Under the pieces are notes generated by a model. That model was not told the DNA's origin. It worked only from the letters and a program-made list of their open reading frames with translations, and did not search any database. 57,163 bases of DNA. Origin: Oscillospiraceae bacterium (GTDB lineage: Bacteria > Bacillota > Clostridia > Oscillospirales > Acutalibacteraceae). A program made the position numbers and the translations under genes. Shown here piece after piece: positions 19,292 to 43,155 of this stretch (position 1 is its first letter; the number at the start of each line of letters is the position of its first letter). Location: contig SVPT01000001.1 of the NCBI GenBank assembly GCA_015065695.1, positions 1 through 57,163 on the forward strand, read 5' to 3'.

Positions 19292-19323
19292 GCCCCCCCC
19301 TCACAAATAATTCGGCACAATGG

Positions 19324-19352
19324 TTGAAACATTGAAAATCCCACTGTATAAT
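19324..19352 (+). promoter_or_regulatory. near-consensus sigma-A promoter of the TIR-LRR gene
   Basis: TTGAAA (19324-19329), a 17-nt spacer, then TATAAT (19347-19352). GGAGGG lies 8 nt before ATG 19383. Confidence 0.6.
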
Positions 19353-19382
19353 ATAAGTAAAATGACTATGGAGGGATTAACG

Positions 19383-21947
19383 ATGTCTGAAAATACCGAA
19401 ATGAAGAAAGTTCCGTTGAAAGTTCCGTTCAAGGCAGAGGAAACCAAGCCGTACATATTTATCAGCTACGCCCACGATGACAAGGACAAGGTTTTCCCCA
19501 TCATAAAAAGAATCTACGAAAAGGGCTGGCACGTTTGGTATGACCAGGGTATTGAGATAAACACCAACTACCACAACGTCATCGCCGACCATGTGCTGGG
19601 CTGCGCCATTCTGGTGCTGTTCGTGTCCAAAACCTCGGTCACCCGCGATTACGTCACCGACATCGAGGTGGGCTTTGCGCTGGAAAATAAAAAGCGTGTG
19701 ATTTTCTGTACTCTCGACGAAGATGCTGAACTTCCCAGCGGCATACGCTCTCGCACATACGACAGTGAACTCCACCCTCGCACCACCCCTGAGTGTATTC
19801 TCGATGTGCTTGAGGGCATTGAGGGGCTGACAAATGTAGGCGAGCGCGAAGCCCATGGCTTAGTGCTTAATGTCAGTGACGAAGGCGAGCTGCTTCTTTC
19901 CGACCCCGATGATGAATACGATTCCGAAGCCACTGCGGGCGGCGGTGTGCGCCTGACAAAGTACAAAGGAAGCGCCGAGTATGTGGTGATTCCGGCAAAG
20001 TGGAAGGGTCGCCCTGTGGTGGAGCTCAAGAGAACTTTTGATGGTAACGAGACCATAAAGTCCGTCACCATCCCCGACAGCGTGACCATCATTGGCGAAT
20101 ATGCATTCTCCCGCTGCAGCAGCCTTACTACCGTCACTATCCCCGACAACGTAACCAACATTGGCTATAGGGCATTCGACTGCTGCAGCAGCCTTACCTC
20201 CGTCACCATCCCCGACAGCGTAACCAACATTGGCTTGTGGGCATTCGACGGCTGCAAAAACCTCACCATAGAATGCGAAGAGAACTCCTATGCGCAGCAA
20301 TATGCAAAAAAGAAAAAAATACCAGTGCGCATAGTTGCCCTCGAGAAAAAAGAAAAGCCGAAAAAACGTGAAGCATCGGATAACATCCCCTTTGTCAGCG
20401 ATGAAGAGAATCCCTATGTCTACTGCAGCTATGCCCACGAAAACGCAGACCTTGTCTATCCCATAATGAAGAGGCTTCACGATGACGGCTTCAGCATCCG
20501 GTATGATGAGTTTGACGGAAAGAATAGCTTTGTTTGTTCAAGAGAAATCAACTCCTGCGCATATTTTCTCGCCTTCCTTACGCCAGAGTATGTTAAAGGT
20601 GATTGGTTGGAAGAGTTGCGACTTTCTTCACCGGACAAGCGCATACTGTACTGGCTGGAAAGCTGTGACCTACCACAAGACCTCCGCCTGCAGCAGGGCT
20701 GCATACAGGGATTGACCAGTGAGGGTCGCACATATGAAGACATCATAACCACCATCGAAAACGAGCTTATCAAAGGCAATTGCCGGGGTCATTATACCCC
20801 GACCATCCCCGGCTTTGACTACAAAGCAGACGACACCGGTATCACCCTTTTGAAATACACTGGACAGGATGAGGTCGTAGTTATAAAGCCCGAATACCAT
20901 GGTCGTCCGGTCGTATGCATTGGCAATATGGCATTCTACAACTGCAGCAACCTTACCTCCGTCGCCATCCCCGACAGCGTAACCACCATTGGCGATTGGG
21001 CATTCTACGACTGCAGCAGCCTTGCCTCCGTCATCATCCCCGACAGTGTGACCTCCATTGGCAATAGTGCATTCTCCAAATGCAGCAGCCTTACCTCCAT
21101 AAATGTTGATGATAATAACAATAACTATAAATCTGTCAATGGTGTGCTGTTTAGTAAAGACGGAAAAAAATTAATTGCATATCCGGGTGGAATAGAAGGA
21201 TGTTATTCCATCCCCGACAGCGTGACCGACATTGGCGATGATGCATTCTCCTACTGCAGCAGCCTTACCTCCGTCACCATCCCCGACAGCGTGACCTCCA
21301 TTGGCGATTGGGCATTTTCCGGCTGCAGCAGCCTTACCTCTGTCACCATCCCCGACAGCGTGACCTCCATTGGCAATTGGGCATTCTCCGGCTGCAGCAG
21401 CCTTACCTCTGTCACCATACCCGACAGCGTGACCATCATCGGCAATAGGGCATTCTCCTTCTGCAGCAGCCTTACCTCCGTCACCATCCCCGACAGCGTG
21501 ACCAACATTGGTGCAGAGGCATTCTCCGACTGCAGCAGCCTTACCTCTGTCACCATACCCGACAGCGTGACTGCCATTGGCGATAGGGCATTCTTCCTCT
21601 GCGAGGACCTCACCATCCTATGCCCCGAAAACTCCTACGCATGGCAATACTGCGAAGAAAACGACATTCCCCATAAGCCGCTCGAGGAAACCTCCCCCAC
21701 CACAGCAGCAGACACTGCACAGCCGTTGGCAAAAGCGGCTGCCGCCCCTGAAACCGACTCCGAAACTGCCCCCGAAATCACTGCCAAGCCCACTGTTGAA
21801 GCAGTCACGGAATCCCCCGCCAAAACAAAATCCCACCGCTGGCTCATCCCCCTCATTCTCGCCCTCGTGCTGCTGGCAGGCGGTGCGGCGGTGCAGCTTC
21901 TCGGCATCTTCGATATTCTCGGCTGGCTGGTCGGTCTGCTTGGGTAG
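19383..21947 (+). CDS. TIR - BspA-type LRR - TIR - BspA-type LRR protein with a C-terminal TM tail anchor
   Basis: Two TIR-like blocks (aa ~20-150 and ~340-470; each has the YAHxD start and a later acidic motif, TDIEVGFAL or DWLEELRL). Two runs of 23-aa repeats (CSSLTSVTIPDSVTxIGxxAFxx) are LRR_5/BspA type. The tail is RWLIPLILALVLLAGGAAVQLLGIF. No signal peptide. Confidence 0.75.
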   Translation: MSENTEMKKVPLKVPFKAEETKPYIFISYAHDDKDKVFPIIKRIYEKGWHVWYDQGIEINTNYHNVIADHVLGCAILVLFVSKTSVTRDYVTDIEVGFALENKKRVIFCTLDEDAELPSGIRSRTYDSELHPRTTPECILDVLEGIEGLTNVGEREAHGLVLNVSDEGELLLSDPDDEYDSEATAGGGVRLTKYKGSAEYVVIPAKWKGRPVVELKRTFDGNETIKSVTIPDSVTIIGEYAFSRCSSLTTVTIPDNVTNIGYRAFDCCSSLTSVTIPDSVTNIGLWAFDGCKNLTIECEENSYAQQYAKKKKIPVRIVALEKKEKPKKREASDNIPFVSDEENPYVYCSYAHENADLVYPIMKRLHDDGFSIRYDEFDGKNSFVCSREINSCAYFLAFLTPEYVKGDWLEELRLSSPDKRILYWLESCDLPQDLRLQQGCIQGLTSEGRTYEDIITTIENELIKGNCRGHYTPTIPGFDYKADDTGITLLKYTGQDEVVVIKPEYHGRPVVCIGNMAFYNCSNLTSVAIPDSVTTIGDWAFYDCSSLASVIIPDSVTSIGNSAFSKCSSLTSINVDDNNNNYKSVNGVLFSKDGKKLIAYPGGIEGCYSIPDSVTDIGDDAFSYCSSLTSVTIPDSVTSIGDWAFSGCSSLTSVTIPDSVTSIGNWAFSGCSSLTSVTIPDSVTIIGNRAFSFCSSLTSVTIPDSVTNIGAEAFSDCSSLTSVTIPDSVTAIGDRAFFLCEDLTILCPENSYAWQYCEENDIPHKPLEETSPTTAADTAQPLAKAAAAPETDSETAPEITAKPTVEAVTESPAKTKSHRWLIPLILALVLLAGGAAVQLLGIFDILGWLVGLLG

Positions 21948-21989
21948 CGGAATATGCCCGCAGCGGGAAGAGATAATATACCCACTACA

Positions 21990-22130
21990 AACAACGTCCC
22001 GCACCCACAAGGGTGCGGGACGTTTTCTTTTTTCTTTGCACCTCACCCTACCACAAAAAACTGCACAAAGCTTGCTATTCCGCAAAAACGAATGTATTAT
22101 TTCACTGGAACAACAAAGGAGGGTCAGACG
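21990..22130 (+). repeat. copy B of the cassette: terminator-like hairpin, promoter and 5' UTR
   Basis: The same hairpin and T-run, then TTGCTA (22072-22077), a 17-nt spacer, TATTAT (22095-22100), and AAGGAGGG before ATG 22131. Confidence 0.8.
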
Positions 22131-22706
22131 ATGTCAGACAATCACGACAAGAAAAACATTCCGCTTGCGGCAGAGGGAAACGAGCAGGCTCTTTCCAATT
22201 CCGATGACGAATACGAAGCAAAAATCACCGCAGACGGCAGCGTAATCCTCACAAGGTACAAGGGTAATGCCGAAAATGTGGTTGTTCCCGCTGCGTGGAA
22301 AGGTTGCCCTGTGGTGGAGCTGGAGAGAACTTTCTGCGAGAACGAGACAATAAAGTCCGTCACCATCCCCGACAGCGTGATCATCATTGGCTTTATGGCA
22401 TTCTACGGCTGCAGCAGCCTTACCTCCGTCACCATCCCCGACAGTGTGACGTCCATTGGCGATGGGGCATTCTTCTACTGCAGCAGCCTAACCATCGTAA
22501 CCATCCCTGACAGCGTGACGTCCATTGGCAGCTGGGCATTCTCTGGCTGCAGCAGCCTTACATCGGTCACCATCCCCGACAGCGTGACTGACATTGGCGA
22601 TTGGGTATTCTACGACTGCAATAACCTCACCGTCCTCTGCCCCCAAAACTCCCGCGCATGGCAATACTGCGAGGAAAACGACATTCCCCACCAGCCGCTT
22701 GGGTAA
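22131..22706 (+). CDS. BspA-type leucine-rich repeat protein (LRR only, no signal peptide)
   Basis: MSDNHDKKNIPLAAEGNEQ... leader module followed by TIPDSVxxIGxxAFxxCSSLTSV repeats. Confidence 0.8.
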   Translation: MSDNHDKKNIPLAAEGNEQALSNSDDEYEAKITADGSVILTRYKGNAENVVVPAAWKGCPVVELERTFCENETIKSVTIPDSVIIIGFMAFYGCSSLTSVTIPDSVTSIGDGAFFYCSSLTIVTIPDSVTSIGSWAFSGCSSLTSVTIPDSVTDIGDWVFYDCNNLTVLCPQNSRAWQYCEENDIPHQPLG

Positions 22707-22717
22707 ACCTGATACTG

Positions 22718-22854
22718 CAAACAACGTCCCGCACCCACAAGGGTGCGGGACGTTTTCTTTTTTCTTTGCACCTCACCACAAAAACCGCCCAAAGCTTGCT
22801 ATTCCGCAAAAACGAATGTATTATTTCACTGGAACAACAAAGGAGGGCAAAACG
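22718..22854 (+). repeat. copy C of the cassette: hairpin, promoter and 5' UTR
   Basis: Hairpin at 22723-22752. TTGCTA (22796-22801), a 17-nt spacer, then TATTAT (22819-22824). Near-identical to 41645-41786. Confidence 0.8.
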
Positions 22855-23766
22855 ATGTCAGACAATCATGAAGAGAAAAACATTCCGCTTGCGGCAGCGG
22901 GAAACGAGCAGGCTTTTTCTAATTCCGAGGACGAATACGAAGCAAAAATCACCGCAGACGGCGGCGTAATCCTTACAAGGTACAAGGGGAATGCCGAGAA
23001 CGTGGTGATTCCTGCTGTATGGGAGGGTCGCCCCGTGGTGGGGCTGCAGGGAACTTTTAGTAATAACGATGCAATAAAGTCTGTCACCATTCCCAACAGT
23101 GTGATCTGCATTGGTGATGGTGCATTCTACGTTTGCCGCAGCCTTGTTTCGGTCACCATTCCCGACAGCGTGACCACAATTGGCTATTGTGCATTCAACG
23201 TCTGCAGCAGCCTTACCTCCGTCACCATCCCCAGCAGCACGACCTCAATCGGCAATTTTGCATTCTGCGCCTGCAGCACCCTTACCACCGTCACCATTCC
23301 CGACAGCGTGACCTCACTGGGCGATGGGACATTCGCCGACTGCAGCAGCTTTACTTCCATAAATGTTGACAGTAACAACGGATACTACAAATCCGTCAAT
23401 GGTGTGCTGTTTAGCAAAGACGGAAAGGAATTGGTTGCATATCCGGGTGGAAATGAAAGGGATTATACCATCCCCGACAGCGTGATCTCAATTGGCGATT
23501 ATGCATTCGATGGCTGCCGCAGCCTCACATCCGTCACCATTCCTGAAAGCGTGACCTCAATTGGCTATTGTGCATTCTACGTCTGCAGCAGCCTTACCTC
23601 CATCACCATTCCCGACAGCGTGGTTCTCATTGATGATGAGGCTTTCTCCCGTTGTGAAAATCTCACCGTCCTCTGCCCCGAAAACTCCTGCGCATGGCAA
23701 TACTGCGAGAAAAACGACATTCCCCACAAACCGCTTGAGAAAACCGCTTGCGATGCAACAACGTAA
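22855..23766 (+). CDS. BspA-type leucine-rich repeat protein (LRR only)
   Basis: The first ~190 nt are almost identical to the gene at 41787. LRR_5 repeats run throughout and the end is CPENSCAWQYCEKNDIPHKPL. Confidence 0.8.
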   Translation: MSDNHEEKNIPLAAAGNEQAFSNSEDEYEAKITADGGVILTRYKGNAENVVIPAVWEGRPVVGLQGTFSNNDAIKSVTIPNSVICIGDGAFYVCRSLVSVTIPDSVTTIGYCAFNVCSSLTSVTIPSSTTSIGNFAFCACSTLTTVTIPDSVTSLGDGTFADCSSFTSINVDSNNGYYKSVNGVLFSKDGKELVAYPGGNERDYTIPDSVISIGDYAFDGCRSLTSVTIPESVTSIGYCAFYVCSSLTSITIPDSVVLIDDEAFSRCENLTVLCPENSCAWQYCEKNDIPHKPLEKTACDATT

Positions 23767-23951
23767 AGTCCGCAAATCCGGCGGCCTTTCAGCTTCCTGA
23801 GTGAACCGGACTGTCTTCGTTGGTCTTCAAGAGGGGTTATATGCTGAATCCTGCAATACTGTAGTGTCCATTCGCACAGAAAAAAGAAGTAGCTGAAAAT
23901 AAACACCGATCTGACGAAAGTGTTCGTTAGGTCGGTGTTTTTTCGTTATAT

Positions 23952-24662
23952 TCAGTTTTTCTGCTGCAGCAGACCGAAGCCCTGTGAATTCTTCGAGCCG
24001 AGCCCGGTGTTGTATATAAATTCGAGGGCCTTGCTGCTACCGGATATGCGGTAATCACCTTTCCAGCCAAGCAGCCGTGATTGCTTGAAATAGGTAGCGA
24101 CACGTCTGTGCCTGCCCAGAGGCTCAATGAGTATCTCATCCGGGTTTTGCCCGGTGACAGCCAAGTATTTGTGCTCGTAGTTTTTCGTGACCATTCCGAT
24201 AAATACATCGTCTTCCGGACCGAAAAAGTATCTGCGTTTGTTTTCGTCTGTGCTGTAGGCTATAACGGGCGATTGCGCAGTAAAGACTGCGCTGTCCGTA
24301 TTTATGTGAAGATTACCTGTTTGAATATCAGTAACATCCAGCACGGTCTGCACAAACTTAATTCTCGGGCTGAGTTCAAAGCTTCTCTGCAGAGTGTCGC
24401 AGAAGGCGGGTATAGGGCTTCTGATTTCCAGAGTAATCTCATCTCTGAAGTTAATCCGCTTGTCCTGGACTGTGTATTTTCCGCAAAGCGAACCGAAGAC
24501 AAAGGATTTGAACACCTTGCCGTTGACATATCCGGAGTCGTGCCAGAAATCCGATTCCCCGACCTCTCTGAGCTTTGCATAGATTGCGCTTTGCACCTGA
24601 TGATTATAGCTCAGCGGAATATCCAGACCGTTTTGTGCCTGCATTGTAATTCGAAGCTGCAT
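23952..24662 (-). CDS. cas6: CRISPR-associated endoribonuclease Cas6
   Basis: 236 aa. The C-terminal glycine-rich loop GLGSKNSQGFG fits the Cas6 GxGxxxxxGxG motif. Typical N-terminus MQLRITMQ...LSYNHQVQSAIY. Directly adjacent to a CRISPR array. Confidence 0.85.
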   Translation of the reverse strand: MQLRITMQAQNGLDIPLSYNHQVQSAIYAKLREVGESDFWHDSGYVNGKVFKSFVFGSLCGKYTVQDKRINFRDEITLEIRSPIPAFCDTLQRSFELSPRIKFVQTVLDVTDIQTGNLHINTDSAVFTAQSPVIAYSTDENKRRYFFGPEDDVFIGMVTKNYEHKYLAVTGQNPDEILIEPLGRHRRVATYFKQSRLLGWKGDYRISGSSKALEFIYNTGLGSKNSQGFGLLQQKN

Positions 24663-24829
24663 ATTGTGTTGCTCTCCTTGTACATAACGAAACAGCAGAA
24701 TATATAACGAAACAGCAGAGAAAGCCGCACGAGCTTTTCTGCTGTTTTTTAAGATTTAATCGAGTGGGGGGAGGGGGGAGATTTGAAATGCGAATAAACA
24801 TAACGCCATATTAGGTGAATTCGTATAAT

Positions 24830-25189
24830 ACGGCAATCCCCTATAGGGGTTAGCGTAGTTCTCTTTTTGCACTTTTTTACCTATCAGGTTCTCCGTATCC
24901 ATCCCCTATAGGGGTTAGCGTAGTTTGACCCAATACAGAGTGGCGTCTCTGCCTAGTGCGTATCCATCCCCCATAGGGGTTAATGTAGCTTTGCAAGATG
25001 AAAGGGAGGAATATAAGACCATATTGTTCCATCCCCTATAGGGGTTAGCGTAGTGTACAAGGTTGTACAGTTTGCACTCTCAGCGTTTTTGTATCCATCC
25101 CCTATAGGGGTTAGCGTAGTTGATCATATTTGGAGGTAATTAATATGATGAAGTACGACATTATCCATCCCCTATAGGGGTTAGCGTAG
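24830..25189 (-). CRISPR. CRISPR array, 6 repeats of ~29 bp and 5 spacers of 36-41 bp
   Basis: Repeat (+ strand) GTATCCATCCCCTATAGGGGTTAGCGTAG at 24830, 24895, 24960, 25025, 25091 and 25161. Internal palindrome CCCC-TATA-GGGG. The repeat at 24830 is degenerate in its first 6 nt and the one at 24960 has 3 substitutions. Strand is inferred from the 8-nt tail ATGGATAC on the minus strand. Confidence 0.9.
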
Positions 25190-25367
25190 AACAACAAATT
25201 GTATTCGCTCATATTATAACAACAATCTCTTGGGTTGGCAATCTGAAAAAGGCACAGACAGTTCAATTTCTTTAGTCACACGCACCCTGAGACAATAAAT
25301 CCCCAGTCCATTGCGCCGCAGCAATCAGGGTGTGGTTCAATCGCTTGTCCATACATAAGCCAAAAAT

Positions 25368-25739
25368 TTAAAAGCAAGTGCCTTTTACGCACACACTTTC
25401 TAAAACTGCATTGAAAAAATACGAAAGCAAATAAGCGGCAGGGACGAGCTGATCGGGCTCGCCGTGCTCGCCTATGCGAAACACATTGGCGACGATCAGC
25501 TCGTCAATGGTGCAGCCATAAAGGACAGCCAGGAACTTGAAATGAGGCATTGAGAAAAGACCGCGCCCCGTTTCGGCCCTGATAATTGCCCTGCGAGACA
25601 TGAAGTCACGCGCATTGGTAAACACATCAGCAAGCTGCTGCTGTGTCATATGATGCGCAAGACGCATCTCGCGAAGGCGCTTACCGGTCGCCACCTGGTT
25701 GATTTCCACGTACCAATCAATGTTGGTGTGTATAGACAT
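25368..25739 (-). CDS. XRE-family HTH transcriptional regulator
   Basis: GKRLREMRLAHHMTQQQLADVFTNARDFMSRRAIIRAETG is an HTH_3-type helix-turn-helix. It is divergent from the 26131 operon and co-oriented with the array and cas6. Confidence 0.75.
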   Translation of the reverse strand: MSIHTNIDWYVEINQVATGKRLREMRLAHHMTQQQLADVFTNARDFMSRRAIIRAETGRGLFSMPHFKFLAVLYGCTIDELIVANVFRIGEHGEPDQLVPAAYLLSYFFNAVLESVCVKGTCF

Positions 25740-26130
25740 AATGTCTACCTCCTAAGTAAAAATTTGGGCTATGCCCTTTTCCATATTACTGTTGGAGGGA
25801 TATCAACTGACAACCAATTGAAGTGTAGCACAATTTTGTCACATTGTCAATGATTCCGGCTAAATATAAATGTACAAATTGCTGATTATCGCTTTGTATT
25901 AATATGACTGGTATTTGAAATGCTCTTAGTTGCCAGAGGTCACTTCGGCTGTACTTGGTGGTGTAAAAGGCACCGATTGTGAGAAATTTCTTCCGATGTT
26001 ACCTTTTTGTGCACATAGATGTAACCTTTAGTGCACTTATGCTTTGCTGAATCCATGTTTATACTAAATGCATAACAGCGGTATTTCCGCTTTTGACCGA
26101 TACATTATTAGGTTTATGGAGGGCACTGCC

Positions 26131-26448
26131 ATGATCAAATTGACAAAGCTGCGTTCGACCAAGGACAGAATCATTTGCGTAGGTGAGGTTGAAAATCTGA
26201 TCTTCTACTATAACCCGTTCCAGACCAGCGATCGCATATATCTCTTTGAAACCAAGGCGTTTTATGGCAGCGTGTTTGCGTACTTCAGAAAGATGGGTCG
26301 CAATATGCAGGCTCGTGGTTTTTCCCTGACCATAAAGGAGCTCTATGAGTTCTGCGACTACAACAATCCGAGACTGACCGGAATTATCCACCGCATCTTT
26401 ATCGTCCTGAAGAGCGTATTGAGCGATGAAAACGACCGTGCAGCGTAG
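26131..26448 (+). CDS. hypothetical small protein, paralogue A
   Basis: GGAGGG lies 8 nt before the ATG. It is about 45-50% identical by eye to the next gene (LRSTKDRIICV...F.YYxP....RI.LF..KAF...VF..FRKMGR....RG.SLTI.ELY.F...NPRL). Confidence 0.7.
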   Translation: MIKLTKLRSTKDRIICVGEVENLIFYYNPFQTSDRIYLFETKAFYGSVFAYFRKMGRNMQARGFSLTIKELYEFCDYNNPRLTGIIHRIFIVLKSVLSDENDRAA

Positions 26449-26556
26449 TAAAAACCCAAATGTGAAGCATAAGTGTACATACACAGAATCGTTGGTGTGG
26501 TAAACTGTCTACACTCCCCCTGCGGGGGTGAATAAAAGAATTGAGAGGAAAAGCTT

Positions 26557-26871
26557 ATGAAGAGACTGGACAATCTGAGATCGACCAAGGACCGCATCAT
26601 CTGCGTCAGCGAACCCAACACCCTTTGTTTCTACTACCAGCCCGTCGGCAGCGGCGAACGCATTTTCCTCTTTAGGAGCAAGGCGTTCAATGCCACCGTG
26701 TTCAATCACTTCCGCAAGATGGGGCGCCGCGCTCCTGAGCGGGGCTACTCTCTGACCATTGGCGAGCTTTATTCGTTCCGCAAGGACAACCCCAGACTGC
26801 TCCAGACTATCAACCATATCTTTCTCGTGCTGAGAAGTCTTCTTCAGGACGAAGATTGCCGCTCGGCATAG
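26557..26871 (+). CDS. hypothetical small protein, paralogue B
   Basis: Tandem paralogue of 26131..26448. GAGAGGAAAAG precedes the ATG. Confidence 0.7.
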   Translation: MKRLDNLRSTKDRIICVSEPNTLCFYYQPVGSGERIFLFRSKAFNATVFNHFRKMGRRAPERGYSLTIGELYSFRKDNPRLLQTINHIFLVLRSLLQDEDCRSA

Positions 26872-27010
26872 GCTGCAGCACGATGTACACCTCAGGGTGT
26901 ACATACACAACCCGAAAGGTGTGCTATTCTTAACACAGGTTGAGGCATCGCCCCAGTCAGCTTGTTGCCTGAGGCGATGCAAGGCTAATCAATTGACAAG
27001 GAGATGACCA

Positions 27011-27574
27011 ATGGTGACCAGCAGGTTTATCGGACTTATGCTTCTCCCCGGCTTTGTGTTTCGTTTGCTGGGGCGCCGCGATGGTAAGCACAGCCCCAAG
27101 ACTGTTCCTCTCCGCATGAGTGGGTTTGAGGAAAGATGCAGTATGCTGATAAATTGCGAAATGCTGCTTTCCGAGAAAAGAACCAGAGATGCCGTGCAAC
27201 AGACGGTGGACGCACTTTTCCTCTTCAAGGTGAGCAATGCCGGTGAACCGGCAGCAAACACCATTCGCCGCAGACTGCAGGCAGCTTCGGCACTGGGTGA
27301 TGCCCTTAAGCAGACCAGGCGGGAGAGGCGTCGTCTTACCTCTGTGGCAGACACGATCTTCCGCAAGTACAAGAGCATTGCGGCCCAGTATCTTGTCGGT
27401 GTCAGCCGTTTTACGGAAGATGCTCCCACCCTGTCCGAGTCGTCCTATTTCTCTGCCGAAGAGTATCTCTGCGAGGCCGAATGCGAGCGGCTTTTCGGAT
27501 TTATCGAGAAATCGGCATCGGCACTGCTCAATGTCCCCGAAGTAAGTGTTAAAGGTTATGAAAGGAGTGCATGA
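27011..27574 (+). CDS. hypothetical protein
   Basis: AAGGAG lies 7 nt before ATG 27011. The stop overlaps the next start (ATGA). No recognisable domain. Confidence 0.6.
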   Translation: MVTSRFIGLMLLPGFVFRLLGRRDGKHSPKTVPLRMSGFEERCSMLINCEMLLSEKRTRDAVQQTVDALFLFKVSNAGEPAANTIRRRLQAASALGDALKQTRRERRRLTSVADTIFRKYKSIAAQYLVGVSRFTEDAPTLSESSYFSAEEYLCEAECERLFGFIEKSASALLNVPEVSVKGYERSA

Positions 27575-27984
27575 CCATGACCAACCGCAATCAGCCCGAG
27601 ACCACCACCGAATACCGCAGCCTGTGTTCTCCTGAGGAGCTGCTGGCGGGTATCGGCAGCTACAGCTTCAGCCCGGAGTTTTCCGCAGTACTCAGTGACC
27701 CCGCCGCATTCTTCAAGAGGAAGATAACAGGCGTGCCCGTTGACCAGTTTTCCGGAGATATTCTTGATGGCATGATTTGTTGCCTTATCGACAGCGAAAT
27801 CGCTCGTCTTGAGGACCAGATCGCCAGCAATGCTCACGCTATTCAGACTGCAGAGACCGCTATCCCTGCCTACATCAGACGTGTTCATGATGAACTCGAT
27901 TGTCTGGTGGACTATGACCGATTAATTGAGGAGGAGCTTGTAGCTCTCAGTGTGCTTGAACGGGCACAGAAAGGGGTCAAGTAA
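27571..27984 (+). CDS. hypothetical protein (predicted helical/coiled)
   Basis: Translationally coupled on both sides (ATGA at 27571, TAATG at 27982-27986). No recognisable domain. Confidence 0.6.
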   Translation: MTMTNRNQPETTTEYRSLCSPEELLAGIGSYSFSPEFSAVLSDPAAFFKRKITGVPVDQFSGDILDGMICCLIDSEIARLEDQIASNAHAIQTAETAIPAYIRRVHDELDCLVDYDRLIEEELVALSVLERAQKGVK

Positions 27985-28871
27985 TGGAGAAGAACACCGT
28001 ACGCACACCGCTGCTCAGCAGCATCACAGCTCGCTGTGCGAAGCGCATCAAGCGGCTGTACACCGACAACGACCTGCTTCCCAACAGCCCTCTTGCGCAG
28101 GCCTGTCTTGCGGTGTTTGTTGCGATCGACAGCACCAGTCTCTATCACTACTATGCATTGTTTAACACCGGTATCTTCACCGTAATTTTAAGATGCATAG
28201 CCGGTGCAGCACTGCTTAATCTGCCGGCATCGATAGCTTGTACCAGCGTTGTCAACGCAAGAGCAGGCATAACCAACGGAACCAAAGTAAAGCGCCGTGT
28301 CATTGCAGCCGTGTTGAGCTTTATGCTGGTGTTTTTCCCCTACGCAAGCGTAACTATGCTCAAAGCCTTTGATGAGGGTGTCCTGTATAAGGCAGAGGAG
28401 GAGTACACAGACCACGAATCCGTATATGGAATCATTCCTGCCATCAATGTCAGCAATGAAACGAGTATGATTGAGCAGGAAGAGGAGCCGACCGGTGTTG
28501 ACCCCATTGAGCTGTTCGCTGCGATTGGTCTTGCTTTTTTCCCCCTTTGCACCACTCTCCTTTCGATGTTTGTTTCACTCGCCTGTACCAAACCACTTCA
28601 GGAGAGGCGCAGGAAACTGCTCACACTGCAGAAAGAGAATGCAGATGATGTAGCTCAGATAGAGCAGATACTTGTTGTGCAGAACGCCTGTCACGGCAAG
28701 CTTGAGGGCATAAGGGCTGCCGATAAAGCTGCAGCAGAGCATCAGCGTGCGCTGATACTGGCCGAGGGCGAGCGTCTCAAGCAGGAAGCCCGTATGTATA
28801 TCTCCCGCAGCAGTAAGAATCCTTCCGAGGTGAGCAACGTCCTTGCCGCCCTTGGTCTGACAACTAACTAA
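27984..28871 (+). CDS. hypothetical polytopic membrane protein with a C-terminal coiled-coil
   Basis: About four hydrophobic helices (for example VIAAVLSFMLVFFPYASVTML and LFAAIGLAFFPLCTTLLSMFVSLA), then a charged heptad-like tail (RRRKLLTLQKENADDVAQIEQ...). Confidence 0.6.
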   Translation: MEKNTVRTPLLSSITARCAKRIKRLYTDNDLLPNSPLAQACLAVFVAIDSTSLYHYYALFNTGIFTVILRCIAGAALLNLPASIACTSVVNARAGITNGTKVKRRVIAAVLSFMLVFFPYASVTMLKAFDEGVLYKAEEEYTDHESVYGIIPAINVSNETSMIEQEEEPTGVDPIELFAAIGLAFFPLCTTLLSMFVSLACTKPLQERRRKLLTLQKENADDVAQIEQILVVQNACHGKLEGIRAADKAAAEHQRALILAEGERLKQEARMYISRSSKNPSEVSNVLAALGLTTN

Positions 28872-28887
28872 TAGGAGGAAAACGCTC

Positions 28888-30150
28888 ATGATGACTAAGA
28901 AGAACGGTTTCATTGTCCGCTGCATCGCAGCAGCTATCTCCATGCTGCTGCTCACTGCGCCGCTGTGTGGCTGCGGTAAGGCAGAACCTCCCGTAGACGC
29001 ACTGTTTATCGCCGGAGGAATCACTTCTGGCAACACTGTAATCGATGAAGACATACTTACCCCCCTTCTTGAATCCGCTGCGGACAACCCCGGCGCAGCA
29101 ATCTGCGCCAGCACGGTTGATGGTGCCCCCGAGGTAGTATACAGTACCACCATTGCCAAGCCCGACAAGAAGTACGCAGCCAAGATCGCCAAGCAGGAGC
29201 GCAGCAAGCTTGTAAGGCGCATCAACGCCGGCATATCCGGCTGTGTTGCTGCTGTCCCCGAGGTTGACATGATGAACGTCCTCTATCTTGCCGAGGACTT
29301 CTTCGGCAGCTTCCACGAGGACAAGCGCAAGGTGCTGTTCATTCATCACAACGGGCTCTCCACCACCGGTCTTATCAGCTTTTCCACTCCCTATAAAGCA
29401 GATGACGTCATGCTCATTATTGATGTTCCTGCCGAAGAAGTGGTAAAAAATCTCGCTGATAACGACCTGCTGCCTGATCTGGCAGATGTTCAGGTTATCT
29501 GGTCCGGCTTTGGCAAGGCCACCGACAAGCAGAGCCCTTTCAGCCGCAACTACGCCGGGAAGCTCGAGTGCCTCTGGGACAGCATCCTGTCCGCAAGCGG
29601 TGCAACTGTTGATTTTATCACTGAGCCCAAGCCCAACGATTCCGTATCCTACAGCAACACAGAGATATTCGGTGATCTTGGTCTGCCCCGCGTCACTCCG
29701 GTTGTGATTCCTCCCGATGAGCTGGACAGCTTCCACGTTGACCTCTCCGAGAACGATGCCGACTGCGCAGTGCGCTTCAACCCCGGAGAGGACACATTCA
29801 TTGATGAGTCCAAGGCAGTGAAGGAGCTGCAGACCATAGCGGGCGAGATGCTCAGGCATGGGCAGTGTGAGTATGTAATCGCAGGCAGCACAGCCAGCTT
29901 TGGTGATGGTGACGGCAAGACCCTGGCTCACGCACGCGCACAGCGCTGTGCAGATGTACTCATCAAAGCCGGCGTACCGGCCGACAGCATTGTGGTCATT
30001 GGACTCGGTAAGCTCTCACACAGCAAGCGAGCAAGCGACGTTGACGCAAATGGCAGATTTGTCGAGGGCGAAGCAGCGGCGAAGAACAGAGCCGTCTACA
30101 TCTACCCGACTGATTCAGATTTTGGCAAGGAGGTTCTTGGCGTATGCTGA
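28888..30150 (+). CDS. lipoprotein with a C-terminal OmpA/MotB-like peptidoglycan-binding domain
   Basis: Lipobox ...MLLLTAPLCGCG. The C-terminus FNPGEDTFIDES...VIAGSTASFGDGDGKTLAHARAQRCADVLIKAGVPADSIVVIGLG...AKNRAVYIY follows the OmpA_C pattern. The ~300-aa N-terminal domain is unassigned. Confidence 0.65.
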   Translation: MMTKKNGFIVRCIAAAISMLLLTAPLCGCGKAEPPVDALFIAGGITSGNTVIDEDILTPLLESAADNPGAAICASTVDGAPEVVYSTTIAKPDKKYAAKIAKQERSKLVRRINAGISGCVAAVPEVDMMNVLYLAEDFFGSFHEDKRKVLFIHHNGLSTTGLISFSTPYKADDVMLIIDVPAEEVVKNLADNDLLPDLADVQVIWSGFGKATDKQSPFSRNYAGKLECLWDSILSASGATVDFITEPKPNDSVSYSNTEIFGDLGLPRVTPVVIPPDELDSFHVDLSENDADCAVRFNPGEDTFIDESKAVKELQTIAGEMLRHGQCEYVIAGSTASFGDGDGKTLAHARAQRCADVLIKAGVPADSIVVIGLGKLSHSKRASDVDANGRFVEGEAAAKNRAVYIYPTDSDFGKEVLGVC

Positions 30151-30209
30151 CAACGGTTATTTTGGGCGGTTTTATTGACATCATCAACAACATCATTGGA
30201 GGTCATTCT

Positions 30210-30863
30210 ATGAACATCTTCAACACTGCAGTAACCACCGAGCAGGCAACCAATCAGTTCCCCTCCACTGCATTCTCCATTATCTTCTGTGTGGTTGTCA
30301 TAGCCATTGTGGTGGCTGCATTCGGCAGAACCAAGCGCGGCAGGGATGTGTTCAGCAGCCTGTTCAGGAACAAGGCTCCGGTCAGGGAGGAGAGAACCCC
30401 CATTGCTGAACCCAGAAAAAAAGCCGTAGATACCGACAGAGAAAATGACCGTGGTGTGACTACCATAGCAGCCAAGTACACCTGTTCCCTTTATCTCGAT
30501 GGTATCAAGATTGCCTCCAAGGCAGTAACCCTCAGTCCTGAAAAGCCCTTCTTTATCGGCAGCGCCCGTGATGACCACCTTCGTGTTGATGAACCTACCG
30601 TTTCCCGCCATCATCTCGTGGTTGCAGTGGACACCGATGGCACTGACTTCATAAGAGACTACGGCCGTGATGGTCAGGGCTCTTCCAACGGCACGTGGTT
30701 TGGCGGTAGCTTCTACCGCAACGCCAGCTTTGATCTCGTCCTTGACGAGAAAATCTACCTCGGCGAAGAGGACGGGCACTACATCGTGTTCGAGCGCCGC
30801 AAACGTCAGCGCGACTGCCACAATTCCAGTGAACAGTCGGGGGCTGTACGCATCTCCCGCTAA
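30210..30863 (+). CDS. membrane-anchored FHA domain protein
   Basis: GGAGG lies 8 nt before ATG 30210 (alternative ATG 30144 overlaps the upstream stop). TM helix AFSIIFCVVVIAIVVAAF. FHA core: FFIGSARDDHLRVDEPTVSRHHLVVAVD....IRDYG...SSNGTWFGG. Confidence 0.8.
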   Translation: MNIFNTAVTTEQATNQFPSTAFSIIFCVVVIAIVVAAFGRTKRGRDVFSSLFRNKAPVREERTPIAEPRKKAVDTDRENDRGVTTIAAKYTCSLYLDGIKIASKAVTLSPEKPFFIGSARDDHLRVDEPTVSRHHLVVAVDTDGTDFIRDYGRDGQGSSNGTWFGGSFYRNASFDLVLDEKIYLGEEDGHYIVFERRKRQRDCHNSSEQSGAVRISR

Positions 30864-30884
30864 ACTGAAGGAGGTAAGAATATT

Positions 30885-32324
30885 ATGATGCTCAAGAGCG
30901 TTAACAGCCGCCCTGTTATCAAGGCTGCATTCATGTTCCTCGTTCTTACCGCAATACTCGGTATGCTGTGCTTCAGCAAGAGTGTTTCTGCTCAGGTCAA
31001 TTTCATGAATTCGTTGACGCCTCTGCTTATTGTCTCCGGTGCTGCGTTCTTATACACGGCATATACCGCAGGGGACCTGCTCCTTACCTTCTCGCTGACC
31101 TCCCTCAACGCAGTGGGCGTTGCTTTCCAGTGTATGCTGCCCAGCGATTTTGCCACCATTAAACAGGATATGGTCTCATACCCCCTGCTCTTTAGTGCCT
31201 TCTCTATTCTACTAATCTTCTGCTACGACATTTCCCAAGGAGGGGAGCGAATTCAGTACATTTTCGGCAAGCTGTGTTCCCCCCTTGGGCTGACAATCAT
31301 CGCAGGCACAATTGTCCTGTCTACTGTTATACTGCTTGTTTTTTCCCGTGGCGAGGATAACAAGTCTTGGCTCAGAATTCCGGGTGTCTTCCAGATTCAG
31401 CTCACAGAGGTCTTTAAGGTGCTTCTGGTTGTGTTCTTTGCTCTGCTCAGCAAAGCCAATCTGGATGCTCTCCCGCTCAAGCTGCTGCGCAGCCGCTTTG
31501 TGTGGGCAGAGGGCGTTCTTATACTGACCATTGGCTGCTTAGGTATACTTGGCGAGTATGGCAGCATTATCCTCATCACTGCATTGGCTGTTGGCATGAC
31601 TTACCTGACCTTTGAAAAGAAGCGATACGCTTTATATATGCTTGCGAGCATAATCGCACTGATTGGCGTTGGTTGGTTGCTCCTGAATATGTTCGGCAAT
31701 GCATATGCAAATGCTGTTGCAAACGGTCAGGAGACCGGCTCTTTGCTTAAGCGTATTGCTTCTGCAAATTCACGTCTTAACGAAAGGTTTGCTCTCTGGA
31801 CTAAAGGCATTGATGACCCGGCACTTGAAGAGGTTTCGGGCCAACTGAAAGATGCACGCAGAGCAGCTATCAAGGGTGGCCTTACCGGGAATGTACATCC
31901 GGTCTATGTGTTGTACGAAGAGTCCGATTACGCATTTATCGGATTGCTCGCTCGCTGCGGCATACTCGTTGGTGCAGCCGTAATGATGCTCTTTTCAATC
32001 GTGCTGCGCCAGGGACTTGTCATTGCGTCTGAGCAGACCGACAAGGCAGCATCAGCCATTGCGGCTGGCATGGCAATGAGCATCTCCTTTGGCTTCATTA
32101 TTAATGCCAGCAGCGCCAGTGGGCTAATCCCTTTAGCGGGCCTCGCTGCTCCCTTTATCTCCAGAGGCGGCAGCAATATGCTCATAACATATATCGCATC
32201 TTCGATTCTTATTTATCTCAGCGGTAACCGCAACAGTTTGTTACGCTCGGTGGTCGATGCCTTTAAGCAGCCCCAGGAAGCACCTCAGCCCAAAGCTGAG
32301 TCCATCAACAGAATAACCCGCTGA
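30885..32324 (+). CDS. SEDS-family peptidoglycan polymerase (FtsW/RodA/SpoVE-like)
   Basis: About 10 TM segments. The C-terminal block SGLIPLAGLAAPFISRGGSNMLITY matches the conserved SEDS motif (G..P..G...PF.SYGGS). Confidence 0.8.
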   Translation: MMLKSVNSRPVIKAAFMFLVLTAILGMLCFSKSVSAQVNFMNSLTPLLIVSGAAFLYTAYTAGDLLLTFSLTSLNAVGVAFQCMLPSDFATIKQDMVSYPLLFSAFSILLIFCYDISQGGERIQYIFGKLCSPLGLTIIAGTIVLSTVILLVFSRGEDNKSWLRIPGVFQIQLTEVFKVLLVVFFALLSKANLDALPLKLLRSRFVWAEGVLILTIGCLGILGEYGSIILITALAVGMTYLTFEKKRYALYMLASIIALIGVGWLLLNMFGNAYANAVANGQETGSLLKRIASANSRLNERFALWTKGIDDPALEEVSGQLKDARRAAIKGGLTGNVHPVYVLYEESDYAFIGLLARCGILVGAAVMMLFSIVLRQGLVIASEQTDKAASAIAAGMAMSISFGFIINASSASGLIPLAGLAAPFISRGGSNMLITYIASSILIYLSGNRNSLLRSVVDAFKQPQEAPQPKAESINRITR

Positions 32325-32338
32325 CAGGGAGGTATACC

Positions 32339-33703
32339 ATGAATATCAAAGATCGTGCCATAATGTTTACTGCCGTCTTTATCTGCATAGAGGTCATACT
32401 TGTCGGGCATCTGTTGGGTTACGCTTCGGTCATCAACAATATTAATCCCAACTCTGATGCCGCTCAGGAAAGACTCATCAAACATGAGATACGAAACAGC
32501 ACCGTTCCAGGCCCCATTACAGACCGCGACGGCATTGCAATTACCTACGCAGAACAACCGGGGGACGACATAAAAATCGTATTCCCCGAGCCGTACAGTC
32601 TGCTGCTCGGCTATAACAACAGCAGGCAAGGTGATGCAGGAATGCTTGCCAACTCGCGTCTGGGCAAACACATTTTGACACCCGACAGCACGAGCTGCGG
32701 AGCAACAGTCCGGCTGACGCTTGACAACGATGTTCAGCAGGCAGCCTACAAGGCTATTCAGGGCTACGATGCCTGTGCAGTAGTTATCGAAGCAAAGACC
32801 GGTAAGGTGATTACCCTGGTAACCACCGATCCGGATATAGTCATTGATTACTCTACCGTGGACAGTATTGAGCAAAGTAATTCCAAAGCCGACAGCTACT
32901 CCGGCTCGCTTATAGCCAACTGGGATGTGTATCTGGCAACCGGCTCAGATATCAAGGCAGTTACGGCATGCGGAATCGTTGAGAGCGGTTGGGAAAATGA
33001 GATATACAGGGATACAGGCAGTGAAACCATAGGCTTTACCATCCACAACGCATATCGCGGCGGCAAGGGCAATATCAGTATGAAACAAGCTATGATCCAC
33101 TCCTGCAACTGTTACTTCTTTTATTACGCAGACCAGCTTGGTCTCGTGCAAATGAAAGACCTTTACGAACGCTTCGGTATAGGCGAGGACATTGAGCTGG
33201 ACTTCATGAGGCTCAGAGCAAGACACAACTTTGAGACCAGCACCCGCACTGAGGTTGCCTGTGCCGGATTCGGCCAGGGCAAGCTGGAGGTCAGCATCGT
33301 CAATATCGCAATGTTTGCGGCTGCCTTTGCCAATGACGGCGCAATGATGAAGCCCTACATGATTGACTGCGTCTATAACAATGACGGTGAAATCATGCAT
33401 ACTGAGCCTGCGGTGTACAAGCAAAGTGTGTCTGCCGAAACGGCTGAAATTATCAACGATGCCCTTGCTGCTACAGCCAAGAGCTACGGCTTTGGCGAGG
33501 GTATATATGCCAAGACCGGCACGGCTGACATCTGGGATGGGACAAACCGTGCCGTTTTGATGACGCACAACGGCGACTATGCAGTGGCAGTGTGCGTGGA
33601 CGAAACGCACATGGCAGGCAAGCAGCTTGTGCCTATGGTCAAGCAGATTTACAAGGCACTCGACGCGGCAGATGCCCGCGCCGAGGCTGTGCCTGCTGAA
33701 TAA
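32339..33703 (+). CDS. class B penicillin-binding protein (transpeptidase) with an N-terminal TM anchor
   Basis: Candidate SxxK (GSDIK), SxN (HSCN) and KTG (AKTGTA) motifs in the right order and spacing. N-terminal TM helix. Confidence 0.75.
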   Translation: MNIKDRAIMFTAVFICIEVILVGHLLGYASVINNINPNSDAAQERLIKHEIRNSTVPGPITDRDGIAITYAEQPGDDIKIVFPEPYSLLLGYNNSRQGDAGMLANSRLGKHILTPDSTSCGATVRLTLDNDVQQAAYKAIQGYDACAVVIEAKTGKVITLVTTDPDIVIDYSTVDSIEQSNSKADSYSGSLIANWDVYLATGSDIKAVTACGIVESGWENEIYRDTGSETIGFTIHNAYRGGKGNISMKQAMIHSCNCYFFYYADQLGLVQMKDLYERFGIGEDIELDFMRLRARHNFETSTRTEVACAGFGQGKLEVSIVNIAMFAAAFANDGAMMKPYMIDCVYNNDGEIMHTEPAVYKQSVSAETAEIINDALAATAKSYGFGEGIYAKTGTADIWDGTNRAVLMTHNGDYAVAVCVDETHMAGKQLVPMVKQIYKALDAADARAEAVPAE

Positions 33704-33726
33704 TAACGAATCAGGGGGACTGGCTG

Positions 33727-35742
33727 ATGAATACCAACAACGTAATCAAGGCAGCAAAGGCTATCATAGGCGAACACTTCCGTAGCGGTCTTTATGCGCA
33801 GCACCTTCCCGATTGGGTCAAGTACATCAATGTTGTGCGCACTCCGTTCAAAGAGTGCGGTCAGGCACAGATTTTTCTCATCAGGGGTGCAGGCAATAGA
33901 TTTTTCCTCAGGGCAGACAACGTCATGGTACTGAAGGTTTTCTCAGATGCCAATGAACAGCGTTGGATAGAAAGGGAACAGGCGATTCGGGGAAAGCTGA
34001 GAGATGATGAAGAGCTTCTTGCTCATCTTGTCCTGCCCATCGACAGCTTCGCGGTGTTCGATGACAGAAACCATATGCTGCATTGCCACGTTTACCTCTA
34101 CAAAACTCCTTTCTGCGATACAGTGGGCAACACTGATGAAGAGTGCGTCAGGGCTGCAATAAGGCTTAGCAGCCTGCTGCCCTGCCTGCACAGTCTGGCA
34201 GAGCTTCGTATCTTCAACAGGGACATCAAGAGAAGCAATCTGTATGCGGACCCCAAGAGCGGCTGTGTGATGATTGGTGACTGGTCGGTTTCCAACAACA
34301 CCCGAAATAATGCCACCCCCATCGGCACATTTCCTGAGATAGCACCCGAGGTAGTTGCCAGCTCTCCGGGCTGCGAAAACAACATCGCCAAGGCCGATCT
34401 CTACAGCCTGGCTATGACCATGATCTTCTACCTCAACGGCATGGAGTATCCGGATCACGACAGTGTGCTTGTTCCCCACAGCGAGGGCAAGATGCAGTTT
34501 CCCGAACCGAAGCTTGGTTGCTCCAGCCAGCTTAAACAGGCGGTTCTTCGTGCTGTTGAGCACAACCCGGAACGGCGTTATGATAACTGCCTTGAGTTTT
34601 ACGAGGCTGTGCGTCAGACACCTGAATATATGCTCTACGGCACCGAAGAAGGAAATGTTAGTTGCATTGAGGATTCGCCAGAATCTGTTGTGGAGAACAG
34701 CGAAATGCTCTGTGAAGCAGAAATCAAACTGGATGTTGATAACCTATCCGAGGATCAGCTTGAAGCAGTTGCCCAGCTTTACGCAAAAATCGCAAGAGGT
34801 CTCGACATTGAATGCGAGGAAGCAGAGCAGTGCAGTGATTCTCCTGCACTGCCCTCTCAGGAGGAATCCGTCATTGAGCAGGCAGAAAGCATTATTCCCG
34901 AGGGCTATGAGGAAGATGAGTGCTTTGACGTTTCCGAACTTTACCCTGAGCCCGCTAAGGAAGAGATAATTACTGAGGTAGAGGAAAGTGTTATTCCTGA
35001 GGGCTATGAGGAAGACAAGCACTTCGACGTTTCCGAGGCATATACCGAGCCCCCTGCCGAGCCCACCAGGCTTTACAACAGCTCCAAGGTGTACACAGGA
35101 CCCGGGCTCTATCCCGATGAGATGGAAGAGGACCTCTCCAACGCTTATACAGGCGAAAGCCTTGACATCACCGACTCGGCAGAGGTGGTTTGTGACCATT
35201 CGGCAGACTTCGCCGCGCTAAGAAGAACCATACGCAGCAGCGGGAAAAACGAACTGCTGTACAGCGGGGAAACCGTACCTCCTTCCGCTTTTTACCACAC
35301 TGCCCTCAAGAAAGCAGTGCTTAAAAACACTGTAACCATCGAGCGCAAGGCGTTCCGGGGCAGTGACATTCAGCACGTTGAGTTTGGCGAGAGGTTGGTG
35401 TCCATAGGCAGCGGGGCGTTTAACGGAACGCAGTTAAAGGAGGTCACCATGCCCGCTTCGCTGCAGCATATAGGCATGGGTGCATTCGCCTGCTGTGAGC
35501 ATCTTGCAACCCTGCGTCTTCCCTCCGGACTGCGCAGGATTGAACGCCGCGCATTTGCCTACTGCCCTTCGCTTAAGAGGCTTTATCTCCCCAAGGGCAT
35601 TGAATACATAGCACCCGATGCCTTTGCAGGAACCGAAATTCACATCTATTCGCCGGAGAATCCCATCAAATACTGGCAGCAGAAGCTGCCAGACAACATC
35701 ACATGGCACAAGCTTATTGAAAAACAAGGAGGCGCGGCATGA
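33727..35742 (+). CDS. Hanks-type Ser/Thr kinase fused to BspA-type LRRs (no TM segment)
   Basis: VLKV (candidate catalytic Lys), FNRDIKRSN (HRD-box variant), IGDWS (DFG variant), PEIAPEV (APE). An acidic linker contains a 33-aa duplication. The C-terminus has xIGxxAFxxCxxLxxL LRR_5 repeats. Confidence 0.75.
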   Translation: MNTNNVIKAAKAIIGEHFRSGLYAQHLPDWVKYINVVRTPFKECGQAQIFLIRGAGNRFFLRADNVMVLKVFSDANEQRWIEREQAIRGKLRDDEELLAHLVLPIDSFAVFDDRNHMLHCHVYLYKTPFCDTVGNTDEECVRAAIRLSSLLPCLHSLAELRIFNRDIKRSNLYADPKSGCVMIGDWSVSNNTRNNATPIGTFPEIAPEVVASSPGCENNIAKADLYSLAMTMIFYLNGMEYPDHDSVLVPHSEGKMQFPEPKLGCSSQLKQAVLRAVEHNPERRYDNCLEFYEAVRQTPEYMLYGTEEGNVSCIEDSPESVVENSEMLCEAEIKLDVDNLSEDQLEAVAQLYAKIARGLDIECEEAEQCSDSPALPSQEESVIEQAESIIPEGYEEDECFDVSELYPEPAKEEIITEVEESVIPEGYEEDKHFDVSEAYTEPPAEPTRLYNSSKVYTGPGLYPDEMEEDLSNAYTGESLDITDSAEVVCDHSADFAALRRTIRSSGKNELLYSGETVPPSAFYHTALKKAVLKNTVTIERKAFRGSDIQHVEFGERLVSIGSGAFNGTQLKEVTMPASLQHIGMGAFACCEHLATLRLPSGLRRIERRAFAYCPSLKRLYLPKGIEYIAPDAFAGTEIHIYSPENPIKYWQQKLPDNITWHKLIEKQGGAA

Positions 35743-36482: not shown

Positions 36483-36502
36483 TAGCCGATGGAGAATCCG
36501 GT

Positions 36503-38396: not shown

Positions 38397-38563
38397 AGAA
38401 ATCAGCACACGAAAGATTTATTGAAAGTCTGTATATTCCTCAGAAAGCAACACCCAGACCAACGGTTGTGCCGAAGGGAAACGACGCAGAGCGCAGAGAG
38501 ATGGTTGAGGAACTGAACAAAATTTTTGATGAGCTTTTTGGCGATAGCGAAGATGATGAGTGA
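38393..38563 (+). CDS. small acidic-tailed protein (56 aa, not listed in the ORF track)
   Basis: The ATG overlaps the upstream stop as ATGA. My translation: MKKSAHERFIESLYIPQKATPRPTVVPKGNDAERREMVEELNKIFDELFGDSEDDE. Confidence 0.45.
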   Translation: MKKSAHERFIESLYIPQKATPRPTVVPKGNDAERREMVEELNKIFDELFGDSEDDE

Positions 38564-39636: not shown

Positions 39637-39678
39637 AGATGAGGAACAGATGATGTGATTTTACAGGAGGAAGAAAAT

Positions 39679-40257: not shown

Positions 40258-40275
40258 ATTTGTGGAGGGACGTAT

Positions 40276-43112: not shown

Positions 43113-43155
43113 CGGAATATGCCCGCAGCAACTTTCCTCATCTCAATAACCTCCA

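Follow-up and report, generated by a model that had tools for sequence, protein, structure and literature searches.

A compact CRISPR array–cas6 cassette without neighbouring effector genes in an Oscillospiraceae bacterium: a probable distant source of guide RNAs for a type III system

The stretch of DNA described here, which we call the window, comprises 57,163 nucleotides of an Oscillospiraceae bacterium (NCBI GenBank assembly GCA_015065695.1, contig SVPT01000001.1, positions 1 to 57,163 of the forward strand). It is chromosomal, carrying recA, prmC and genes for ribosomal protein S9 and a response regulator, and it contains a CRISPR array beside a cas6 gene. The coordinates of these and the adjoining features are collected in Table 1; related loci and contigs are designated by L numbers.

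Table 1. Features of the array–cas6 locus and its immediate surroundings (positions in the window)
Feature	Positions	Strand	Basis or remarks
Bidirectional intrinsic terminator	23901-23940	.	18-pair stem followed by a T run; fold z -5.6
cas6 (236 aa, Cas6b-like endoribonuclease)	23952-24662	minus	profile scores, invariant residues
Hairpin, 16-bp stem followed by UUUCGUU	24710-24747	minus	between array and cas6
CRISPR array	24830-25189	minus	six 29-nt repeats and five spacers
Repeat copies	24830-24858, 24895-24923, 24960-24988, 25025-25053, 25091-25119, 25161-25189		
Degenerate terminal (trailer-end) repeat CTACGCTAACCCCTATAGGGGATTGCCGT	24830-24858	minus	adjoins cas6
Spacer S5	24859-24894		
Spacer S4	24924-24959		
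Spacer S3	24989-25024		
Spacer S2	25054-25090		
Spacer S1	25120-25160		
Leader with sigma-70-like promoter	25190-25241	minus	promoter scan, conservation
HTH gene (helix-turn-helix, XRE-type)	25368-25739	minus	HTH_3, 27.4 bits (cut-off 23)

The repeats, with the minus-strand consensus CTACGCTAACCCCTATAGGGGATGGATAC, recur every 65-70 nt from start to start and are separated by unique spacers of 36-41 nt (n=5), i.e. the array has the make-up expected of a CRISPR (three or more direct repeats of 23-47 nt that hardly differ from one another, with unique spacers of similar length). A search for the 23-nt core of the repeat with up to three mismatches returned six matches in the window, all of them within the array, against an expectation of none derived from 100 shuffles. 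The RNA of the repeat folds better on the minus strand (-8.5 kcal/mol) than on the plus strand (-6.0), and its hairpin consists of a 4-bp G-C stem (CCCC-TATA-GGGG). No match of the repeat to any CRISPR-DR or other RNA family was found in Rfam. It does align with relatives' repeats whose ends read ATTGAAAC or ATTGATAC, so that its 8-nt tag, ATGGATAC, is a diverged form of the classic ATTGAAAC tag. The degenerate terminal repeat, which ends in ...ATTGCCGT, is identical across all related contigs, including L008, whose Cas6 is 95% identical to that of the window.

The product of cas6 exceeds the curated cut-offs of the TIGR01877 cas_cas6 profile (99.7 bits, cut-off 58.65) and of PF01881 (83.9 bits, cut-off 23), and its best PADLOC profile is Cas6b (181.5 bits). 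It contains a glycine-rich loop, GLGSKNSQGFG, which fits the pattern GxGxxxxxGxG, and in an alignment of 25 sequences (the window protein with 24 relatives) it retains all 22 invariant columns, including those of the loop and of His41, a residue that is presumably catalytic. The nearest solved structures are those of the Pyrococcus proteins PH0350 (3QJP) and PfCas6 (3PKM), at low sequence identity, and the closest relatives among species-representative genomes belong to metagenome-assembled genomes (MAGs) of Acutalibacteraceae, Ruminococcus and Oscillospiraceae, among which several come from ruminants. The ratio of nonsynonymous to synonymous substitution rates (dN/dS) is 0.13 in the comparison with L006 (dS 0.62) and 0.30 in that with L008, which indicates that cas6 evolves under purifying selection.

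Apart from cas6, we found no cas gene in the window. About 70 open reading frames (ORFs) were compared with the Pfam, NCBIfam and PADLOC profiles, and only cas6 was recognised as a cas gene, systematic coverage being limited to ORFs of at least 110 aa, whereas cas2 genes are smaller. When 33 proteins from the type III-D and III-B loci of relatives were used as tblastn queries, cas6 alone was found in the window, all other matches having E > 0.05. For Cas10 there was no Pfam match, and the four Cas10-like queries from relatives found nothing in the window at E < 0.05; likewise, neither Csx19 nor Cas7/Cas5 subunits of the RAMP (repeat-associated mysterious protein) superfamily occur in the 57 kb. 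The flanks in which no further cas gene was found measure 24 kb on the cas6 side and 32 kb on the leader side. An earlier note on this DNA, made from the sequence alone, had recognised a clear array, a Cas6 with the glycine-rich loop and a lack of other cas genes, all of which our analyses bear out. Because the window holds no effector genes, the locus by itself cannot be classified as a type III system.

The array is bounded by a promoter-bearing leader at one end and by the degenerate repeat at the other. The promoter-like site (25241-25213) agrees with the consensus at 11 of 12 positions and lies about 24 nt ahead of repeat 1; it combines a -35 box, TTGCCA (25241-25236), with a -10 box, TATAAT (25218-25213), at a spacing of 17 nt, the latter with an upstream TG. 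The site is conserved in L006 and L009. In L006 both boxes and the leader-repeat junction are kept and the sequence beyond them, upstream, is unrelated, while the leader as a whole is 74% identical to the one that adjoins the inverted array of L009. The promoter-like site and its conservation, the position of the degenerate repeat, the alignment of the tag and the more stable fold of the minus strand together support transcription of the array on the minus strand, from a leader on the side of the HTH gene, and the same orientation is suggested by the strains described below, which share the spacers near cas6 and differ at the leader end. The orientation proposed in the earlier note is therefore retained, as are its interpretations of the 8-nt tail as a ATTGAAAC-type handle and of the degenerate repeat at 24830 as the terminal, oldest one; the leader itself, for which 25190-25367 had been suggested, shrinks to a conserved stretch of only about 50 nt.

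Between the array and cas6 lies a hairpin whose core was detected by a terminator scan, whose sequence is conserved in L006 and L008, and around which a 98-nt segment folds at -24.3 kcal/mol (z -2.7). It may be a partial terminator, or else it may stabilise the 5' end of the cas6 mRNA. Since a scan of the minus strand revealed no promoter-like site between the array and cas6, we infer that cas6 is read from the leader promoter, and it is probably co-transcribed with the array through this hairpin. A 19-nt direct duplication (TACATAACGAAACAGCAGA / TATATAACGAAACAGCAGA, at 24681-24719) reproduces the hairpin's 3' arm; L008 has the duplication too, L006 has a single copy, and it could permit alternative pairing. 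The bidirectional terminator, with which cas6 ends, is also the distal limit of the conserved segment.

This segment has sharp borders. BLAST homology to L006, a relative of 86% identity, extends from the -35 box (25241) to the terminator (23901) and no further, and homology to L008 stops at 23878. The gene upstream of the leader in L006 encodes a cell-wall-binding protein of the CWB2 family rather than an HTH protein; a CWB2 neighbour is found in L009 (55% identity) as well, where the array is inverted relative to cas6 yet keeps the same leader. From the edges of homology and the unconserved neighbours we take the functional unit to be a 1.34-kb cassette, 23901-25241, which comprises leader, array, hairpin, cas6 and terminator and which occurs in at least three genomic contexts. 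The earlier note had drawn the unit more widely, from the HTH gene through leader and array to cas6, and had tied it to the 26131 operon. This arrangement is not supported: the HTH gene was rejected as a component because homology ends at 25241, and the linkage of cas6 and array with HTH gene and operon is common only to the contigs L010 and L011 of the same strain, other relatives having other neighbours. The adjacent operon is an unrelated neighbour of the cassette.

Further evidence on the state of the locus comes from seven other metagenome contigs, from seven samples, in which cas6 is unchanged (0 of 708 nt different) and the arrays differ. Read from the leader, the window and L010 carry S1-S2-S3-S4-S5, L011 only the two spacers S1 and S5, and L012 the series N0-N1-N2-N3-S4-S5. 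The remaining contigs are truncated: L095 and L096 start within S3 and continue with S4-S5, L013 starts within S4, followed by S5, and L014 starts within the array and retains S5 only. In all, six metagenome contigs break within the array, which is what one would expect of spacers that vary in a population. Three array haplotypes thus accompany a nucleotide-identical cas6, with the cas6-proximal spacers in common and the leader-proximal ones different, a pattern that is classically the mark of acquisition in a polarised manner and of internal deletion. In L012 (1-294) the four leader-side repeats are of a uniform, distinct variant, CTACATTAACCCCTATAGGGGATTGATAC, which points to acquisitions that are recent in that strain, or else to recombination with a second array belonging to the same family. 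The purifying selection on cas6 and, more strongly, the turnover of array haplotypes indicate that the locus is not decaying, and the earlier suggestion of a decaying locus is accordingly disfavoured.

The relatives of the window Cas6 point to a particular kind of partner. In about 20 related loci, whose Cas6 proteins are 30-58% identical to that of the window, a III-D-like or III-B-like operon lies less than 10 kb from cas6, and most relatives with sufficient flanking sequence have a type III effector operon within 10 kb of the gene. III-D-like operons with Csx19 are found near cas6 in L015, L004, L019, L021, L022, L024-L027, L029-L032, L036, L038, L060, L079 and L102; they encode a Cas10-like protein of about 500 aa, a RAMP fusion of about 670 aa, a RAMP protein of about 400 aa, Csx19, and a further RAMP protein of about 630 aa, a make-up that matches the fused-subunit III-Dv/III-D2 systems (PMC11026444, PMC13294483). 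III-B-like operons with Cmr2, Cmr3 and RAMP proteins occur in L016, L017, L018 and L020, and in L016 and L017 they include an additional Card1-like CARF nuclease. L018 and L034 likewise have an array immediately upstream of a cas6 gene of the same orientation. Two observations on individual relatives may be added. Many of the III-D-like loci of this clade, among them L001/L015 and L004, encode next to cas6 a protein of roughly 560-600 aa that weakly matches MJ1674_2nd and may be an ancillary effector. In L020 (10817-15776), an Oscillospiraceae MAG, the array, cas6 and III-B-like operon are followed by genes for a metallophosphatase, a large terminase and a portal protein, i.e. a prophage abuts the CRISPR locus.

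RNA-targeting type III systems need crRNAs (CRISPR RNAs) that are antisense to mRNA. In spacers of the close clade a motif composed of a Shine-Dalgarno sequence and ATG occurs in 5 of 61 cases in the orientation that would make the crRNA antisense to an mRNA and in 0 of 61 in the opposite one; in other arrays of the family the figures are 14 and 3 of 441, and in neither set was a target identified. A special enrichment of spacers at start sites, which we had considered, was dropped, as the motif is present in only 5 of 61 spacers, and we take it as a signal of orientation only.

Taking these data together, we regard it as probable that the cassette is a distant module that supplies crRNAs to a type III effector, and is itself served by an adaptation module, both acting in trans. 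The leader promoter would transcribe the six-repeat array, probably through the hairpin into cas6; Cas6 would cut each repeat 8 nt before the next spacer, giving rise to crRNAs with the 5' tag AUGGAUAC; and these would be loaded into a type III complex of the III-D-like or III-B-like kind, whose genes would lie in the same genome more than 24 kb away on the cas6 side or more than 32 kb away on the leader side. New spacers would enter at the leader end by the action of an adaptation module encoded elsewhere. Of the three explanations offered by the earlier note, service in trans is thus the one we favour. It fits the published frequencies of distant arrays, as in complete genomes 23% of the arrays are separated from every cas cluster by more than 20 kb, and among these 75% match the subtype of a cas cluster in trans (PMC7145637), and it fits the finding that in many type III loci an array is lacking (PMC12669027).

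Several observations weigh against supply in trans, in addition to the lack of any cas gene other than cas6 among the ORFs of the window. The relatives L009, L002, L100 and L006 show no effector in their short flanks, which for L009 extend 2-3 kb per side and for L002 include 10 kb of housekeeping genes on one side, so that loss of the partner is possible. The L002 locus (1-2530) is of some interest in itself, for its Cas6 relative (46% identity) lies between a divergent HTH_3 gene and a degenerate series of repeats, near the housekeeping genes yabP, yabQ, divIC, uvrA and uvrB, and it may be another isolated cas6-array unit. To return to the points of concern, the repeats of the window are heterogeneous (R1 ends in ...GATAA, the tag of R3 is one base short, and R4 has three substitutions), which may reflect slow turnover in this strain. 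Some of the haplotype differences may have arisen by recombination between arrays rather than by fresh acquisition, a possibility raised by the variant leader-side repeats of L012. A 21-mer of the repeat was unmatched in genome, viral and metagenome contig collections, and a degenerate 20-mer was unmatched in metagenome contigs, in collections that evidently lack the JGI and ENA samples carrying this organism. The organism occurs in the JGI samples 3300032167, 3300018494, 3300018475, 3300024270, 3300024269 and 3300029705 and in ENA ERZ27248436. Finally, no credible target was found for 11 spacers in BLAST searches of phages and plasmids, and three exact sub-spacers (20-25-mers) had no match in IMG/VR, these databases covering the viruses of the herbivore gut poorly; no spacer matches the window itself.

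The main rival of supply in trans holds the cassette to be an orphaned remnant, left in a genome that has lost its effector and adaptation genes too recently for the cassette to have decayed. We consider this unlikely, even though the cas-free flanks (24 kb and 32 kb), the shortness of the array, the deviation of four of its six repeats from the consensus and the lack of detectable targets all speak for it, and orphan arrays average about eight repeats (PMC7145637). Such a history sits poorly with the dN/dS of 0.13 maintained across a dS of 0.62 in a lineage that has kept the cassette (L006), which implies that selection has acted for long, and also with the conservation of promoter and terminator and with the leader-side spacer turnover between strains whose cas6 genes are identical.

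It is improbable that the cassette is cargo of a mobile element, whose crRNAs would hijack the type III effector of the host against competing elements. The recurrence of the same 1.34-kb segment with sharp homology edges in at least three contexts speaks for it, as do the local dip in G+C content (0.45, compared to 0.50-0.53 in the flanks) and the presence of genes for a VirD4-like coupling protein, ClpP and a NADAR antitoxin 14-17 kb away, and plasmid-borne isolated arrays that match chromosomal cas clusters have been documented (PMC7145637). However, RecA, ribosomal protein S9 and PrmC are encoded in the same window, in which no integrase, relaxase or transposase was found; the cassette has no flanking terminal repeats, and its repeat is unmatched in the viral contig collection.

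A bolder proposal, to which we assign still less weight, is that the genome has no canonical effector at all and that the cassette is kept for the sake of Cas6-processed RNAs working alone or with an undescribed partner, e.g. in the antisense silencing of phage or plasmid genes at ribosome-binding sites; in a milder version it would be a crRNA plug-in, portable from one genome to another and shared out between effectors of the III-B and III-D kinds. The stricter idea of a role independent of effectors, in which Cas6-processed RNAs alone would act as antisense on translation-initiation regions, strikes us as very improbable. Two of the 10 spacers known from the species (S1 and N2) do lie antisense over a Shine-Dalgarno sequence and ATG by the strict motif, and N0 and S3 appear similar by eye, but only 5 of 61 close-clade spacers carry the motif, the bias in orientation is fully explained by RNA targeting of type III systems, the counts are low, the observation is a post hoc one, and no such mechanism is established for Cas6. 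Hardly credible, lastly, is the third explanation of the earlier note, that the neighbours (which would here be the HTH regulator, the 26131 operon and proteins with leucine-rich repeats, LRRs) use the crRNAs as an unrecognised effector, for although these genes adjoin the cassette, the HTH gene is co-oriented with it and five operon proteins have no family match, the linkage is confined to L010 and L011, L006, L008 and L009 have other neighbours with homology stopping at the cassette edges, and the operon (FHA, FtsW/RodA, penicillin-binding protein transpeptidase, Ser/Thr kinase, PP2C) is an envelope-signalling set without RNA-binding features.

With supply in trans as the preferred interpretation, the cassette can be compared with known systems. 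In Pyrococcus furiosus and Thermus thermophilus, effector complexes that are encoded separately receive crRNAs from stand-alone Cas6 proteins. The window resembles these cases in its canonical Cas6, whose nearest structures are from Pyrococcus, and in the 8-nt tag, and differs from them in its host, a bacterium related to MAGs of Clostridia from the herbivore gut, as well as in the low sequence identity and in the CCCC-TATA-GGGG hairpin. Like the distant arrays served in trans that were surveyed by Bernheim et al. 2020 (PMC7145637), the array is short, lies more than 20 kb from an effector or adaptation cluster and belongs to a recognisable repeat family; unlike them, it has a cas6 of its own and forms a compact, sharply bounded cassette, and it is probably distant but may be a true orphan. 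With the III-Dv/III-D2 systems, characterised by fused Cas7 subunits and by Csx19 (PMC11026444, PMC13294483), and with the III-B (Cmr) systems it is connected through the Cas6 homologues beside such operons, where the repeats share the tag ATTGA(A/T)AC, whereas the window has no effector gene of either kind. Within the Cas6b-type ATTGAAAC repeat family, known from I-B and type III arrays, it is placed by the PADLOC result and by the alignment of its repeat with GTTTTTAGCCTACCTATAAGGGATTGAAAC-like repeats; its divergence shows in the tag, changed to ATGGATAC, in the 5' half of the repeat, changed to CTACGCTAA, and in the lack of an Rfam CRISPR-DR match.

All the components are of known kinds (a Cas6b-like Cas6, a repeat of the ATTGAAAC family, an array distant from effectors), the arrangement is known and fairly ordinary, and no new mechanism is revealed. 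It is mildly noteworthy that a compact, bounded guide unit is found in at least three contexts, with spacer turnover at the population level despite its separation from effectors, and also that one clade of Cas6 is paired with two type III effector architectures. The cassette offers a clean natural case of CRISPR modularity, in which the production of guides (promoter, array and Cas6) is contained in 1.3 kb, is maintained by selection and is uncoupled from the genes of interference and adaptation. This is of relevance for the interpretation of "orphan" arrays in metagenomes and for the question of where type III loci without arrays obtain their guides.

Other regions of the window deserve brief mention. 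The large plus-strand operon next to the HTH gene (26068-37759) begins with five small proteins without a family match, for which PADLOC gave no match either; the first two of them (26131-26448 and 26557-26871) look like paralogues by eye. They are followed by OmpA-like, FHA, FtsW/RodA and penicillin-binding protein transpeptidase genes, a fusion of a Ser/Thr kinase with BspA-type LRRs, and two phosphatases of the PP2C type. Further on (37977-41523), a homologue of the DarT1-associated NADAR antitoxin (160 bits) adjoins ClpP and a VirD4/TraG-like coupling protein; it is not accompanied by a recognisable DarT toxin, and the ORF upstream, of 139 aa, has no family match. The segment 47880-51361, with immunity-protein-like genes (Imm19, SUFU-like, DUF3916) and a protein with a transglutaminase core, resembles an immunity island of polymorphic toxins.

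The window also contains repetitive sequences of other kinds. Several BspA-type LRR genes (19320-23766, 41697-45463) are built of 69-nt units, in 34 copies, and a Sel1 protein in the same regions consists of 16-17 units of 108 nt; simple period scans may mistake either for CRISPR arrays. At the end of the window (56069-57022) a unit of about 235 bp is repeated in tandem (4.1 copies at 92% identity); the repeat, non-coding in appearance, includes eight TTTACGCTTGCGC-like motifs at spacings that alternate between 95 and 140 nt.

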